From positions 1,298 to 55,862 of the forward strand of contig CAYHLH010000003.1 of NCBI GenBank assembly GCA_964357525.1: a stretch of DNA of 54,565 nucleotides. The letters are read 5' to 3'. Position numbers and translations under genes: made by a program. The notes below the pieces were generated by a model, which was not told where the DNA came from, ran no database searches, and was given only the letters and a program-made list of their open reading frames with translations. This document shows, piece by piece, positions 39,419 through 44,526 of the stretch (the first letter of the stretch is position 1; the number at the start of each line of letters is the position of its first letter). This DNA comes from an uncultured Candidatus Saccharibacteria bacterium (GTDB lineage: Bacteria > Patescibacteriota > Minisyncoccia > UBA6257 > GWB1-50-10).

Positions 39419-39787
39419 TCAAGGCAGCGGACATCCGGATTCGGCGGCGAGTTTCGCGAGTGGCTGTTCGCCGACGAGCGTCACGCCGTTCGGGAATATC
39501 CACGTGGGGAATCCCTGAATGCCCTTATCGGTGCAGAGCGGGATGTTGTCGGGGCACTCAACGTACTTCACGTACTTGAACGCCTCTCCGAATGCCGCCT
39601 TCTGGTTCTGGCAGTGGGAGCACCACGCGGCGCCGTACATAACGACATCTTTCCCCGCCAAACACTGCGCAAAAGCCGAGTAATCCGTTTCCGGCTCCTT
39701 CCGCGAAAGGGAAAACGCCAAGGCGCCCGCGAGGAGGAACATCACGAGTATGGCGCCCACGGCAAAATACATCTTTGAGTCCTTCAT
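39419..39787 (-). CDS. Membrane-anchored thioredoxin-like protein
   Basis: TM anchor; MYGAAWCSHC.NQK..FG, YVEC, GFPTW. Confidence 0.85.
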   Translation of the reverse strand: MKDSKMYFAVGAILVMFLLAGALAFSLSRKEPETDYSAFAQCLAGKDVVMYGAAWCSHCQNQKAAFGEAFKYVKYVECPDNIPLCTDKGIQGFPTWIFPNGVTLVGEQPLAKLAAESGCPLP

Positions 39788-39797
39788 CCGTTTTTCA

Positions 39798-40343
39798 TCA
39801 TTCGTCGCAACAATCGACCAATTTGCTCACTATATCCTCGAACGACATCCTTCCGTTCGGGTTTTTGTCCTTGCGGTTCAGCGCCCCGTCGGGGATCTTC
39901 TTCACGTTCGAAAGGTCAATGAGCTTCAGGCGCAATCCCCAGAAAAGCGAATAGACCTTGTATGCGTTCCGGAACATTTGTTTCGCCTCATCAGGTTTCC
40001 CCGTCGTCTGGAGCTTCGTGCCGACCTCCATAAGGCGCATCGTCGCGGCCAAGAGGTGTTTGCTGATGCACCACGTTTCCCCTTCGTGCGCGGGTATCAT
40101 CTTCGCCAAGAGTCCCTTCCGGAGCGTGCGCGTTTCGTCCAGGAGTTTCAGGTAATCGTCTTCCTTTTTCGTTTTCTCCGCCGTGAAGAAAAAGTGTTCC
40201 TCCAAACTGATGAGGTTCATGACCGCGATCGAGAGGTCCTCGTCGAGCGAGAGGTCGAACGAGCCGCTTTTCTTCAGCTCTTCAACTTTTTTTATGAATT
40301 TGCCTATATCCTTTTCTTCCATAAGACGCGGGGTTTCAGTCAT
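39798..40343 (-). CDS. Hypothetical helical protein (C-terminal DCCDE)
   Basis: NLISLEEH, WCISKHLL; adjoins or overlaps both neighbours. Confidence 0.75.
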   Translation of the reverse strand: MTETPRLMEEKDIGKFIKKVEELKKSGSFDLSLDEDLSIAVMNLISLEEHFFFTAEKTKKEDDYLKLLDETRTLRKGLLAKMIPAHEGETWCISKHLLAATMRLMEVGTKLQTTGKPDEAKQMFRNAYKVYSLFWGLRLKLIDLSNVKKIPDGALNRKDKNPNGRMSFEDIVSKLVDCCDE

Positions 40344-40349
40344 TGTACC

Positions 40350-41138
40350 TCAAAAGAGGAGGATGAGCACTCCGACGAGCACGAGCCCGATGCCGGAAAA
40401 GAGTTTCATCCCGCCGGCGTTTTTCTTGCGCCATGCCTCCGCGCGGCCGATGAGCGCGGGACTCGAAGCGACTATGAGAGCGGCAAGGAGCGGCAAAACG
40501 AAGACGATGTTGTACCAGAGTAGATACCCGAACCCGCGGAGATACGCGGCGCTGTCGTGCAGAAGCCCCAGAATCGTGAGATACGGCCCGCCGGTGCACG
40601 GAAACTCGAAGAGCGCCACGAATCCTCCGAGGAGGAACGCGCTCGGAAGGGACCCTTTCTCGATGAAGCGGGCGATCTTGGGGTGAGCCGACTTCGGGAG
40701 CTTGAAGCGGATGGGGAATCCGGGGAAGAAATGCCCGATGAGCTCCGCAACGCCGAAGAAGATGACGAGCCATGCGGCGAGTTTTGAAACGAAATTCGGT
40801 ATGCCGAGGAACGTGAGCGCCTGGAGTATCCCCAATCCTATCAGAAGATAGGTGACGAAAATGCCGAATATGTACGCGCCTCCGGTAATGAGAATGAATT
40901 TTCTGGACCTCTGGAGCGATAACAGGAACGCGACCGTGAGAAGCAGGACCGAGAACGCGCAGGGATTGATGCTGTCCACGAGCGACGCAATGGTGACAAA
41001 AGGAAAGAAAAGGCCGCTTTCCGGCGTGATGCGCGTTCCAGAAAAATAATTTGAGAACGCCAGCTTCGCGCCAAAAAGAAGCAGGGCAAAAACCACGAAG
41101 ACAATTACAAGTTTAACGAGATCTTTCTTATTGCGCAT
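40350..41138 (-). CDS. CcdA/DsbD-like transmembrane electron transporter (cytochrome c biogenesis family)
   Basis: DSINPCAF and EFPCTGGPY Cys pair, YNxxFVLPL, multiple TMs. Confidence 0.85.
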   Translation of the reverse strand: MRNKKDLVKLVIVFVVFALLLFGAKLAFSNYFSGTRITPESGLFFPFVTIASLVDSINPCAFSVLLLTVAFLLSLQRSRKFILITGGAYIFGIFVTYLLIGLGILQALTFLGIPNFVSKLAAWLVIFFGVAELIGHFFPGFPIRFKLPKSAHPKIARFIEKGSLPSAFLLGGFVALFEFPCTGGPYLTILGLLHDSAAYLRGFGYLLWYNIVFVLPLLAALIVASSPALIGRAEAWRKKNAGGMKLFSGIGLVLVGVLILLF

Positions 41139-41226
41139 CCGTTTAGAATAGCAAAAATTTCCAATATGCGAAAACTTTCCCGCGCTGGCACGTTCGTAAA
41201 ACTCCAACGGTTTAACATAATTAAAC

Positions 41227-41255
41227 TTGACAAACCTTTTATTTTTCTGTAAAAA
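41227..41255 (+). promoter_or_regulatory. Near-consensus sigma70 promoter of the tas-array locus
   Basis: TTGACA (41227-41232) - 17 nt - TAAAAT (41250-41255). Confidence 0.75.
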
Positions 41256-41301
41256 TAAACCAGAATTTCAAATAAAATTAACATAAAAATATGGGGCGAA
41301 T

Positions 41302-42090
41302 ATGAAAAAAGAAGAAGTCCAGAGCGGACTGGAATCAAAATTAGGCACACTAGGCGCGCTCGTCGATTTTCAGCTACAACTTGAGAAAGCGATTACCGCG
41401 CTGAAAATCCGTAATACGCATTTAACCAAAAACGGTTCAGTCGACCCGCACACGAAGGAATTGTTACTCGAGTCAATAAAATTCAAGAGAGAGTTTCTCT
41501 TGAAACCAGTGAAGCGGCTTCTTGTAACGCACCCCGCATACCCGTGGTTCTCAAGGGTGAAGGGAATTGGAAATGAAAACATTTCTAAAGTCATCACGCT
41601 CATTGATATTGCGAAAGCTCCGACTATAAGTTCGTTGTGGAAATATGCAGGCTTCAGCGTGATTGAAGGAAAAGCTAATCGTCCTCAAAAAGGCAAAAAG
41701 CTCGACTTCAACAAGGAACTGAAGGTGATGTGCTGGCGGGTTGGCGTGGCGCTGATTAAGGCCAACCACCTGTCAAAAAACGGCACGAAATTCGGGCGCT
41801 TTTTCAAAAAGTATTTAGAAGAAGAAAAGGCAAAATTCGAAAGAGACGGCAAGAAGGTAATCCCGACGAAGGACTGGAAGAAAATCGCGAAAAACCCGGA
41901 ATCTTCCGAAGATTTCCGGAGTGAATATTACGTGCAGAACAGGGCTTTCAGGAGAATGATCAAACTTTTCCTCGGTTGTCTGTGGTTATTTTGGAGAAAA
42001 GCCGAGGGACTGGCGATACGCGATCCCTACCCCATCGAAAAAATGGGCCATACAACTTTGATTAAACCGGAAGAAATGATTGATAGATAA
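41302..42090 (+). CDS. Nop-domain / IS110-RNA-binding-domain protein without a nuclease domain (TasA-like TIGR-associated protein)
   Basis: Coiled-coil N-terminus, then HPAYPWFSRVKGIG...IDIAKAPTISSLWKYAG...R.KGKKLDFN..LK...WR.G..L...RAFRRMIKLFL..LW..WR..EGL....PY; no RuvC DEDD or HNH motif seen; directly followed by a 36-nt array. Confidence 0.85.
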   Translation: MKKEEVQSGLESKLGTLGALVDFQLQLEKAITALKIRNTHLTKNGSVDPHTKELLLESIKFKREFLLKPVKRLLVTHPAYPWFSRVKGIGNENISKVITLIDIAKAPTISSLWKYAGFSVIEGKANRPQKGKKLDFNKELKVMCWRVGVALIKANHLSKNGTKFGRFFKKYLEEEKAKFERDGKKVIPTKDWKKIAKNPESSEDFRSEYYVQNRAFRRMIKLFLGCLWLFWRKAEGLAIRDPYPIEKMGHTTLIKPEEMIDR

Positions 42091-42270
42091 AGCCATTTCA
42101 TACGAGAAAACCAAAAACGATAAGCGAGCCATCAATTTATAGAAAACCAGAGAATAAAAGCGAGCCATTCTTTCCAAGAAAACCAAGAAGTATAAGCGAG
42201 CCAATATATTCAAGAAAACCAATTGTCATAAGCGAGCCATGGTTGGCAAGAAAATCAGAATCAACAAGCG
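42091..42270 (+). ncRNA. TIGR-like tandem interspaced guide-RNA array: 5 x 36 nt (AGCCA-N9-AGAAAACCA-N9-AGCG)
   Basis: Units start at 42091, 42127, 42163, 42199 and 42235. Spacer pairs: TTTCATACG/AAAACGATA, TCAATTTAT/GAGAATAAA, TTCTTTCCA/AGAAGTATA, ATATATTCA/ATTGTCATA, TGGTTGGCA/GAATCAACA. Unit 5 loop is AGAAAATCA. Confidence 0.9.
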
Positions 42271-42271
42271 G

Positions 42272-42302
42272 GCCGCCACTTTAAAAAAGTGGCGGTTTTT
42301 TT
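42272..42302 (+). terminator. Intrinsic terminator closing the tas-array transcript
   Basis: GCCGCCACTTT-AAA-AAAGTGGCGGT-TTTTTT. Confidence 0.8.
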
Positions 42303-43530
42303 ATTTATTCTCCAATTTGGGCGTTTTCTCCGAAATCAAAAAATTACCGTCATTATTTCTTGAAAAGCTTTTTCCTTTCTGGATTTCCGTCCACGAAACT
42401 TCTTGAATGACCTCCCCCTTCGGATTCACGAAAAGCACGGCATTGTTGGAGTACGCGAGCGTGTTGGATTTCGCCCACGCGGCGTCGGGGGCGGGACCTC
42501 CGCGGTATCCTCCTTCGTTCGCGAGGAGAAGGAACCCTTTCGCGGGAACCGTTTTTCCCTCGAGACGCGATGCGGAAACGAGAGAGCTTACGGCACCGGT
42601 ACCGCTCCTCTTCTTCAGGGACCAGCCCGTGAGCGAAGCAGGCGCATCGCTCGGATTCCAAATCTCTATATACTCGTTATCCGAGGCGCCCTCCTCGCCC
42701 ACAAAGACCTCGTTGATGGCCACCGGCGAATACACCGAAACGGTCCCTTGAGAAACTGCCTCCACTTTGGGCCGTGAACTGTGAGCGTTGAATGGCAAAG
42801 GTTGAGGGGCGGGTGTTTTTTGATTTTTGGTTTCAAGTGAAATTCCCGATGAATTTTCCCCGCCCGGCGTTCCTCCGGAAATCGAGGAAGTTTGCCACTT
42901 GAGCGCGCCCGTGCGTTCCATCGTCCGTTTCGTTTCGTTGTCGCCAGCAGGCCACATACCCCTCGGAACCTCGTCAGCAAGTCCGCAATCTGCGGTGAAA
43001 AGCCGGAGGCCGGTGCCGGTATTCACGAGCGCGCCGTCGTAAGTGAGGTTGCCTGAAATTTTGCCCGACGCCTTCCGCACAAGAAGATTAAACCCGCCCG
43101 CGGGGAGCACCGTACCTTTTGGAATCGTTATTTTGATGCGTTCGTCTGCATTTATGATCTGCCAAAGGGAAATGTTCGCCTCGCGCCCCGAAACGTTCTT
43201 CAATTCCATCCATTCGGCGTTGTAATCCTCCTTCATTCCCATCCACGCGATCTCATTGAATATAACGGGACCGCCCGCCGGCGCCGAAGCCGACCCATAC
43301 ACACACGGATGGAAAGCCGGCCCCCCGCTTCGGGAGGCGAGGTCGACCTCCGCAATCGGTTCCTCGCGGGACAGAAACCCGCCCACAGCGGAAGAAAGGG
43401 AGGCGAGAAAACTATCCCCGCCGGAAAAACCTTTCCCAAAAATGAGAAACATCCCGAGAAAGAGCGCGAGAAAGGCGCCGAGCGCCGCGCCCGCAATTTT
43501 GAGCCCCTTCAAGATCGGGTTTGGGGGCAT
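42301..43530 (-). CDS. Membrane-anchored protein with two lamin-tail domains
   Basis: VIFNEIAWMG....EWMELKN and VAINEVF....NEYIEIWNP....SLTGWSL; N-terminal TM. Confidence 0.85.
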   Translation of the reverse strand: MPPNPILKGLKIAGAALGAFLALFLGMFLIFGKGFSGGDSFLASLSSAVGGFLSREEPIAEVDLASRSGGPAFHPCVYGSASAPAGGPVIFNEIAWMGMKEDYNAEWMELKNVSGREANISLWQIINADERIKITIPKGTVLPAGGFNLLVRKASGKISGNLTYDGALVNTGTGLRLFTADCGLADEVPRGMWPAGDNETKRTMERTGALKWQTSSISGGTPGGENSSGISLETKNQKTPAPQPLPFNAHSSRPKVEAVSQGTVSVYSPVAINEVFVGEEGASDNEYIEIWNPSDAPASLTGWSLKKRSGTGAVSSLVSASRLEGKTVPAKGFLLLANEGGYRGGPAPDAAWAKSNTLAYSNNAVLFVNPKGEVIQEVSWTEIQKGKSFSRNNDGNFLISEKTPKLENK

Positions 43531-43572
43531 AGTTCCTCCATTATACGCTTTTTTGATGGTATACTTATACAT

Positions 43573-44526
43573 ATGCTTCGCGGCACAAGGATATTTCTCG
43601 CCATCGGCGCGTTCCTCGTCGGAGCGCTGTTTTTCCTCGCGGCGAATTACCTCGTCGCGCTCGCCGCGACGAACATCAGCGCGACCACGGCGGAGCACTT
43701 CGCGTGGGACGACGTCACGGGCTGGTGGAATTTCTACGCGACCGACAACATCGAGGTCGAGAACACCAGGGTCACCGGATACGCCTCGAGCTCGTTCGGC
43801 TACATCTCGCTTGACTGCGCGACGAGCCCGAACAACAACATCTGCGGCACCTCGAACTACGGCGTGTGCAACGGGCCCGGACCGCATGGCGCGGACGGGA
43901 CGTGCCCCAACGGCGACGCGTCGGGAATCCTTTCCGGATGGGGATGGAGCGACGAGATAGGGTGGATAAGCTTCAACTGTTCCGACCCCGGAGTCTGCGG
44001 CACCTCGAATTACAAGGTGCAGATAGACGGCTCTGGCAACTTCAGCGGATGGGCGTGGAATGACGTCGTCGGGTGGATAAGCTTCAATTGCGGGAATTAC
44101 TCCGGTTGCGGCGCGTCCGAATACAAGGTGAAGACGAGCTGGGTCGCGACGAGCACCGTCGGATACCTGGAATCATCCATCTTCGACACCGAGCGCATCG
44201 CCGGAGGACTCTTGAACGGCATCGTGTGGCAAGGCACCAGCCCCGGCGCGGAGTCGTGCGTTTCCTTCCAGAACGCGGTTTCCAACAATTCCGGAGGCCC
44301 GTGGAACTACAAGGGGCCATCCGGCACCGCCATCGACTATTACGGGGCGGCGTGCGCGAGCGCTCCGAACGGGGGCATCGGGTGCGCATCCCCGAACGTC
44401 CCGACCTGCGTAGACAAGAGCCAATTCACGAATTACCGCTATCTCCGATACAAGGTGAAGCTGCAGAGCACGCTCACGCAGGTCTCGCCAGAGATAAGCG
44501 ACATCATCCTTAACTGGAGCCCGTAG
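43573..44526 (+). CDS. Secreted Cys/Trp-rich CPR surface protein (GWxWxDxxGWISFNC repeats)
   Basis: Signal/TM; repeated SGW.W.D..GWISFNC; C-terminal YRYLRYKVKL. Confidence 0.8.
   Translation: MLRGTRIFLAIGAFLVGALFFLAANYLVALAATNISATTAEHFAWDDVTGWWNFYATDNIEVENTRVTGYASSSFGYISLDCATSPNNNICGTSNYGVCNGPGPHGADGTCPNGDASGILSGWGWSDEIGWISFNCSDPGVCGTSNYKVQIDGSGNFSGWAWNDVVGWISFNCGNYSGCGASEYKVKTSWVATSTVGYLESSIFDTERIAGGLLNGIVWQGTSPGAESCVSFQNAVSNNSGGPWNYKGPSGTAIDYYGAACASAPNGGIGCASPNVPTCVDKSQFTNYRYLRYKVKLQSTLTQVSPEISDIILNWSP

Follow-up and report, generated by a model that had tools for sequence, protein, structure and literature searches.

TIGR-Tas systems were described in 2025, with TasA, defined as 'a solo Nop domain', as the commonest Tas type and with guides encoded in arrays of two alternating 8–12-nt repeats and 9-nt spacers (Faure et al., PMC12045711). 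In the same report FpTasA, from a dual-repeat system of Flavonifractor plautii, binds 36-nt RNAs. For stem-loop TasA, RNA-guided transcriptional repression and a shift of target DNA in an electrophoretic mobility shift assay have been published (10.64898/2026.09.09.750476, September 2026), and cryo-electron microscopy of PlTasA shows heteroduplexes on both strands (10.64898/2026.08.11.744272). Here we examine a locus of this family in a 54,565-nt stretch of DNA (the window; contig CAYHLH010000003.1) from an uncultured groundwater bacterium, Candidatus Saccharibacteria: tasA, the gene for a 262-residue protein, and the array of five 36-nt units behind it. We consider it very likely that the locus is a dual-repeat TIGR-TasA system of the kind described by Faure et al., nuclease-free and RNA-guided. 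A first, sequence-only reading had pointed to a TasA-like protein with a TIGR-like array, and our results support it. That reading had also called the activity unknown, which the published work just cited makes partly outdated.

Set beside FpTasA by description, the locus likewise has a solo Nop-type protein with no nuclease and no associated genes, followed downstream by 36-nt units of edge, 9-nt spacer A, loop and 9-nt spacer B, with a 5′-truncated first edge and a terminator after the last. It differs from that dual-repeat TIGR-TasA in having only five units and a first half-edge that abuts the stop codon. The stem-loop proteins MbTasA and PlTasA are also nuclease-free; theirs bind DNA by both spacers and repress, and they serve as the functional model here, whereas this locus is dual-repeat and retains the C-terminal loop. 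TaTasR (PDB ID: 9mty) is the best match in both sequence and fold, and shares the coiled-coil dimer and repeats ending in CCA. TasR, however, has at its N-terminus a RuvC domain, about 140 residues long, with no counterpart here, and the repeats of this locus start with AG (box D-like), not with the UG of TasR arrays. SpTasH of Salicola phage CGphi29 (PDB IDs: 9w03, 9w04 and 21kl) has the coiled coil and Nop fold (Z 20.1, 21% identity), the Y/H dyad in its C-terminal loop and a dual-repeat 36-nt tigRNA, but it also has an N-terminal HNH domain and cuts DNA, whereas the TasA studied here begins at the coiled coil. The features of the locus, all on the + strand, are as follows.

41227..41256, + strand: promoter candidate, sigma-70-like; TTGACA at 41227–41232, followed by N18-AAAAAT (TG before) or N17-TAAAAA
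41302–42090, + strand: tasA, encoding the 262-residue nuclease-free Tas protein; ATG start, TAA stop at 42088–42090
Residues 9–74 of tasA: coiled-coil helices, then the Nop-type RNA-binding domain and the C-terminal processing loop
42028–42030, + strand: codon of Y243, in the C-terminal processing loop of tasA
42049–42051, + strand: codon of H250, in the same loop
42091..42126, + strand: tigRNA unit 1; 5′-truncated edge AGCCA at the TAA stop, spacer A TTTCATACG, loop AGAAAACCA, spacer B AAAACGATA, AGCG
42127..42162, + strand: tigRNA unit 2; AGCCA, spacer A TCAATTTAT, loop AGAAAACCA, spacer B GAGAATAAA, AGCG
42163..42198, + strand: tigRNA unit 3; AGCCA, spacer A TTCTTTCCA, loop AGAAAACCA, spacer B AGAAGTATA, AGCG
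42199..42234, + strand: tigRNA unit 4; AGCCA, spacer A ATATATTCA, loop AGAAAACCA, spacer B ATTGTCATA, AGCG
42235..42270, + strand: tigRNA unit 5; AGCCA, spacer A TGGTTGGCA, variant loop AGAAAATCA, spacer B GAATCAACA, final partial edge AGCG
42270..42305, + strand: intrinsic terminator; 13-pair stem at 42270–42298 (6 G-C pairs), 3-nt loop and T-run

The protein belongs to the Tas family by sequence and by fold. A phmmer search of the PDB sequences returned TasR as the best match (9mty_A, E 5.5e-18), together with TasH (21kl_A, E 2.5e-11). The NCBIfam model NF052498 (TIGR_Tas_endo) matched residues 25–232, spanning the coiled coil and the Nop domain, at E 4.5e-39 and 134.7 bits (cut-off 100). 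With TIGR-TasA known since 2025 and the protein already recognised by a curated NCBI model, the locus is not new in kind. NF052498 is an 'equivalog' titled 'TIGR-Tas system RNA-guided endonuclease', yet it passes on this nuclease-free protein, and automatic annotation would therefore label TasA an endonuclease.

The AlphaFold2 model of TasA (pLDDT 93.9, pTM 0.89), which rests on an alignment of 73 homologues, has two long N-terminal helices followed by a helical Nop-type domain. Foldseek placed only TasH and TasR chains at ranks 1–10 (E 3.9e-10 to 8.7e-8), with the IS621 recombinase next. Aligning the model to 48,161 chains with VIA-align gave the following matches (r.m.s.d., root mean square deviation).

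TasR, 9mty_B: Z 21.4, r.m.s.d. 2.9, 209 residues aligned; best fold match
TasH, 21kl_A: Z 20.1, r.m.s.d. 3.0, 225 residues aligned
ISCro4 (IS110 family), 9t56_A: Z 14.2
Nop5, 1nt2_B: Z 7.8, r.m.s.d. 3.8, 154 residues aligned; rank 43, amid many coiled-coil matches

The Nop-like Tas fold that had been anticipated from the sequence is thus borne out, although by the Tas structures and ISCro4 rather than by Nop5, whose Z of 7.8 is within the noise range for helical models and which was absent from the Foldseek results at E ≤ 0.001. The lack of a nuclease or transposase domain also held: Pfam, the PDB sequence search and the AlphaFold2 model revealed no RuvC, DEDD or HNH domain in TasA, and Pfam returned no family at all at E ≤ 10. 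TasA aligns from residue 148 of the TasR chain and residue 143 of the TasH chain onwards, and only 56 residues, all helical, lie upstream of its TasR-aligned part. We assign it to the TasA class because a Nop-type domain without RuvC or HNH is what the published definition describes.

TasA is predicted to dimerise through its N-terminal coiled coil, like the solved Tas proteins. Homodimer prediction gave an ipSAE of 0.65 in three runs and 0.00 in the best of three controls, with at least 95% of contacts common to the runs, a partner pLDDT of 81–82 and an interface at residues 16–73. Among solved homo-pairs, 20 of 30 attain the homodimer mark, as does one of 23 single chains; resemblance to the solved Tas dimers may have contributed to the result for TasA.

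In SpTasH, Y289 and H296 are the reported catalytic residues of metal-independent pre-tigRNA cleavage (PMC13421893), and the Y/H dyad is described as marking dual-repeat systems and as missing from stem-loop ones (10.64898/2026.09.09.750476). In the PDB-search alignment these two residues fall on Y243 and H250 of TasA, the spacing of seven being kept, and each position is at least 90% conserved across the 73-sequence alignment. By alignment, TasA appears to have the processing dyad expected of a dual-repeat system.

The array is made up of five exact 36-nt units between 42091 and 42270 (starts at 42091, 42127, 42163, 42199 and 42235), and both the 262-residue reading frame and the position of the array, from the base after the tasA stop, proved to be as first read. 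Each unit runs AGCCA, 9 nt, AGAAAACCA, 9 nt, AGCG, which across unit borders gives two constant 9-mers, the edge AGCGAGCCA and the loop AGAAAACCA. Tandem Repeats Finder (TRF) reported a period of 36 and 4.2 copies for the locus. The pattern AGCGAGCCA-N9-AGAAAACCA occurs four times here (≤ 2 mismatches), compared with none in 100 window shuffles, and elsewhere in the 630,906-base genome neither this pattern nor the reversed-pattern control was found.

Some details of the sequence-only reading needed amending. The constant 9-mers do run AG...CCA, apart from the fifth loop, AGAAAATCA, which is one mismatch from AGAAAACCA, and the last edge, which reads AGCG then GGCCG and agrees at 7 of 9 edge positions; the 3′ part of this partial edge overlaps the terminator, forming the 5′ arm of its stem. 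There are indeed two variable 9-mers per unit, but the ninth base is A in spacer B of all five units, a purine in spacer A of four of the five, and mostly G or A in relatives, so the freely variable part is nearer 8 + 8 nt. The first edge repeat had been said to overlap the stop codon; it is instead a 5′-truncated half, AGCCA, that abuts TAA.

Published repeats end in CCA (box C) and start with UG in TasR arrays, the start covarying between the two repeats of an array; loop repeats are rich in A, and edge repeats have an extra base pair (PMC12045711). All of the array features listed by Faure et al. are present in this array. The AG...CCA frame of the two repeats encloses AAAA in the loop and CGAG in the edge. 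The edge sequence would permit an extra C3–G6 pair, but neither position varies, and covariation therefore lends it no support. The ends, too, are those of TIGR arrays as published, with a 5′-truncated first edge, a partial last edge and then a rho-independent terminator. When 42060–42310 was folded as RNA, the terminator was the sole stable element (z −1.13), which fits a dual-repeat rather than a stem-loop array. On the locus, Rfam gave no match at E ≤ 1 and PADLOC gave none.

Contigs from four groundwater runs of two studies (2021 and 2025) have an identical array. One contig of run X3 has two substitutions in unit 5, C>T at 42247 in spacer A and T>C at 42255 in the loop, the latter restoring AGAAAACCA; a second contig of the same run agrees with the window at both positions.

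The terminator, a 13-pair stem with a T-run after the array, was confirmed. For the promoter, the TTGACA hexamer stood, whereas the proposed −10 element TAAAAT did not: the sequence reads TAAAAAT, which allows N17-TAAAAA or N18-AAAAAT. This candidate scores 10 of 12 consensus matches, and the region contains three promoter-like sites against a mean of 1.8 in shuffles, the one otherwise nearest to the array on the + strand being at 41381. A single transcript is proposed because between tasA and the array there is neither room nor a promoter-like site.

A large protein database contains 83 homologues of the protein, most of them 240–300 residues long and without Pfam domains; the closest are 61–65% identical, and conservation extends over the full length. 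The alignment used 73 of the 83, those set aside for partial coverage or odd length being P0037, P0056, P0058, P0066, P0068, P0069, P0070, P0073, P0075 and P0077. IMG/VR holds 277 relatives, the best about 43–44% identical. In contigs from one genome per species, 23 loci encode a relative, from Nomurabacteria, Saccharibacteria, other Patescibacteria, Dehalococcoidales, Aenigmatarchaeota and others.

Arrays stand beside these homologues as the sequence-only reading would have it, with conserved repeats and different spacers. A 36-nt array lies on the tas strand in 19 of the 23 genome loci, the exceptions being L009, L019, L020 (contig ends at most 30 nt from the match) and L022, and in all 12 metagenome loci examined (13 were fetched; the contig of L132 ends at the match). 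TRF at a minimum score of 30 overlooked the short or divergent arrays of L001, L012, L013 and L025, which a motif scan recovered. The closest relatives, L001 (63%) and L123 (64%), have AGCGAG(C/T)CA and AGAAAACCA repeats with entirely different spacers. More widely, bacterial loci pair (G)AGCGAGCCA with (G)AGAAA(A/C)CCA, and L014, L015, L018 and L021, from Aenigmatarchaeota and Nanoarchaeota (DPANN), have TGCGAGCCA with TGAAA(A/C)CCA. The start of the repeat thus covaries between edge and loop, as AG/AG or GAG/GAG in bacteria and TG/TG in the four DPANN loci.

Several of the relatives' arrays differ by whole units. L124 and L125 have near-identical tas genes, with an array about two units longer in L124, and the near-identical tas genes of L133 and L134/L135 are followed by arrays in which some units are common and others different; such differences imply gain or loss of units between close relatives. 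Spacer A GAGTAGTTG occurs twice in neighbouring units at L003:4870-4950, and spacers TTGCCATA and CCCTCA-- recur with small changes at L124:3724-3990. The repeated spacers of L003 and L124 suggest that arrays grow by unit duplication and divergence. In L124 and L125 the edge is 11 nt long, GAGCGTAGCCA, and the period appears to be 37 nt instead of 36, which is why the 36-nt motif scan overlooked these arrays.

From these features, we propose the following mechanism. Transcription from the promoter near 41227 would cover tasA and the array in one RNA and stop at the terminator. Two TasA subunits, held together by the coiled coil, would grip a single edge repeat and a single loop repeat at their box C (CCA) and box D-like (AG) motifs, and Y243 and H250 would cut the precursor in mid-edge, approximately between AGCG and AGCCA, without metal ions, to yield five 36-nt tigRNAs. 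Each ribonucleoprotein (RNP) would then unwind about 16–18 bp of DNA, with spacers A and B pairing with opposite strands in adjacent parts, and the bound nuclease-free complex would block transcription or replication with no cutting. Repression by occupancy is put forward here by analogy with the stem-loop TasA experiments and the PlTasA structures. A CRISPR-repeat system likewise interferes by binding, not cutting, but its proteins are unrelated and it uses a single long spacer and CRISPR repeats.

A number of points weigh against this account. We infer the transcription, co-transcription and processing of this locus from its sequence, and the promoter is a consensus match only. Minimised arrays reportedly needed full edge repeats for processing (PMC12045711), and the truncated first edge here complicates how the 5′ end of tigRNA 1 would form from a tasA co-transcript. 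The array is short, at five units, with no sign of spacer turnover in the sampled population. The cited passages of the TIGR-Tas literature contain no DNA binding or repression by a dual-repeat TasA, the repression assay having been made with a stem-loop TasA. Finally, the guides yielded no convincing target in the searches below: none in the genome with two mismatches or fewer in the inferred geometry, a chance-like number with three, and, for the two units scanned against viral contigs, one exact 18-mer for unit 1 and seven for unit 5.

For the target search, a site was taken to consist of spacer B and then the reverse complement of spacer A, a geometry inferred from the reported 8-nt 3′ overhangs; the published text gives no half-site order, and it places the cut inconsistently, in one sentence '3′ to' and in another '5′ to'. 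The five units were scanned against the 19 contigs of their own genome (630,906 bases, 96.7% complete) in two geometries, with five control arrangements and then 60 within-spacer shuffles. In the inferred geometry there were no sites with two mismatches or fewer, four with three mismatches (shuffle mean 3.9) and 40 with four (shuffle mean 35.5). One two-mismatch site for unit 2, in the other geometry and on contig C1, was rejected as within chance, 32% of shuffles giving at least one.

The guide targets are thus probably not in the bacterium's own chromosome. Since the assembled genome is without an above-chance match, we conclude that they are most likely foreign DNA, such as phage, other mobile elements or a host organism. 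The alternative that the five guides repress genes of their own chromosome has some points in its favour: the locus is chromosomal and sits between housekeeping-type genes, a reprogrammed stem-loop TasA silenced a chromosomal E. coli gene (10.64898/2026.09.09.750476), and TasR reportedly nicked a site where one spacer formed just 6 of its 9 pairs, by which imperfect sites might count (PMC12045711). Against these stand the empty class of near-perfect sites, three- and four-mismatch counts that match the shuffle null, and a lone two-mismatch site that is within chance, and we regard such self-regulation as unlikely.

The IMG/VR viral contigs were scanned for the exact 18-mers of units 1 and 5, which gave one and seven matches; these lie in unrelated contexts and were judged to be at chance level, without a control-pattern scan. 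Short spacers are described as yielding many false positives (10.64898/2026.09.09.750476). For unit 5, two of the matches are in near-identical contigs (L113 and L118), and the 18-mer also lies in similar flanks at L112:2342 and L116:7057, which we read as a chance coincidence with conserved sequence.

We likewise give little credence to the idea that the locus is a decaying or frozen relic, in which tasA and a short array have persisted after losing their activity. It has only five units, where published arrays most often have 5 to 15 (PMC12045711), one loop repeat is mutated, no targets were found, and the array is unchanged between the samples of two studies. The reading frame is nevertheless unbroken and keeps every conserved position, the Y/H dyad among them, and the promoter-like site and the terminator are both intact; the array retains the exact sequence in four of its five loops and in all four full edges; and at 61–65% identity to relatives the protein is conserved along its full length.

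TasA might instead be an RNA-guided adaptor for an effector encoded elsewhere, such as an integrase, a ParB-like protein or a nuclease, and not a simple roadblock. Faure et al. discuss TasA as a potential helper of integrases, and tasParB operons in some loci (PMC12045711). When reading frames within about 3–4 kb of tas were clustered across 65 loci, however, no family besides tas recurred next to it, the other recurring clusters being translation artefacts of the array and the tas antisense strand. Here the flanking genes, for a DsbD-like and a lamin-tail-domain protein, are unrelated to DNA transactions. This agrees with the stand-alone locus without an adjacent effector that the sequence-only reading had proposed, and an adaptor role appears improbable.

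That the locus is a bacterial box C/D-like RNP, in which a Nop-type protein and guides direct RNA modification, is very improbable: the motif layout resembles archaeal sRNAs (PMC12045711), and archaeal Nop5 shares the Nop-type RNA-binding domain and coiled coil (1nt2_B, Z 7.8 over 154 residues), but that Z is in a range common for helical models, neither fibrillarin (PF01269) nor L7Ae (PF01248) was found in the 96.7%-complete genome where archaeal controls were positive, TasR is reported inactive on RNA substrates, and, in contrast to the Nop5 RNPs with those partners, the guides are arrayed and the targets shown for the family are DNA. Equally improbable is an IS110-type mobile element or remnant whose repeats would be bridge-RNA-like or end sequences, for although the IS110/IS621 bridge-RNA recombinases share the Nop-type RNA-binding domain and coiled coil (IS621 and ISCro4, Z 14.2, are the next structural matches), PHROG 4285 'transposase' matches at E 1.6e-32 and four distant homologues carry PF02371, TasA itself has no DEDD/RuvC domain and no PF02371 or PF01548 match, the Tas structures are closer by about 6 Z units, the gene is single-copy in the genome, and a 36-nt dual-repeat array is not an IS110 feature.

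Within the preferred reading as a dual-repeat TIGR-TasA system, the junction of stop codon and array merits separate mention. In 9 of 21 loci compared (this window, with TAA followed by AGCCA, and L003, L005, L006, L010, L016, L017, L023 and L025) and in 5 of 12 metagenome loci (L126–L129 and L131), the tas stop adjoins the first half-edge, which reads (A)GCCA or CCA, or shares bases with it. Several relatives have a half-edge to which one or two stop-codon bases belong (TAG followed by CCA, or TGA followed by GCCA). Arrays are reported to be able to lie within the tas 3′ end, which may link maturation and translation (10.64898/2026.09.09.750476). A tentative and, in our view, rather unlikely reading is that the half-edge at the tasA stop is a feedback device. 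Taken with guides that lack an above-chance match in the genome, this would make the locus an autoregulated, nuclease-free interference system against foreign DNA in a genome-reduced groundwater bacterium. The Y/H RNase of TasA, or binding of unit 1, would set the 3′ end of the tasA mRNA; the cut would fall right after TAA here, and in some relatives would remove the stop to leave a non-stop message, such that guide maturation and Tas synthesis would be negatively coupled. The idea is complicated by the reported need for full edge repeats in processing (PMC12045711).

The setting of the locus suggests that it was acquired horizontally, as a self-contained module of 1.2 kb. GC content is 39–46% at 41000–42400 and 55–64% in both flanks, tasA is present once in the genome and the repeat pair of this array nowhere else in it, and the distribution is patchy: among 60 related genomes one has a tasA homologue (46% identity; genome 71% complete), and none was found in the same-genus genome. 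Upstream lies the divergent gene for the DsbD-like membrane protein, with a conserved 181-residue protein and thioredoxin behind it, and downstream the convergent lamin-tail-domain gene, followed by CysS. The upstream trio (39419-41207, − strand; the 181-residue protein has no Pfam family) keeps its order in three related genomes (L026–L028). No clean insertion site was shown, the fetched L026–L028 loci (about 3.7 kb) being without both tasA and the lamin-tail gene. Two long open reading frames on opposite strands, 42301-43887 (−) and 43309-44526 (+), overlap by about 580 nt. The lamin-tail-domain matches of the former lie only at residues 384–500, and its true start is therefore probably much further downstream than that of the longest reading frame.

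The locus is very compact, with 262 residues, five guides and about 1.1 kb including its own promoter-like site and terminator. Most TIGR loci are reported to sit on short metagenomic contigs (10.64898/2026.09.09.750476); the location of this one in a 96.7%-complete, 0.63-Mb genome made a whole-genome self-target test possible, and its negative outcome points to foreign targets for a chromosomal TasA. Found again in relatives, the stop codon junction makes a connection of tas expression with guide processing open to test. With its Y/H loop kept, the locus is suited to testing DNA binding and repression by a dual-repeat TasA.

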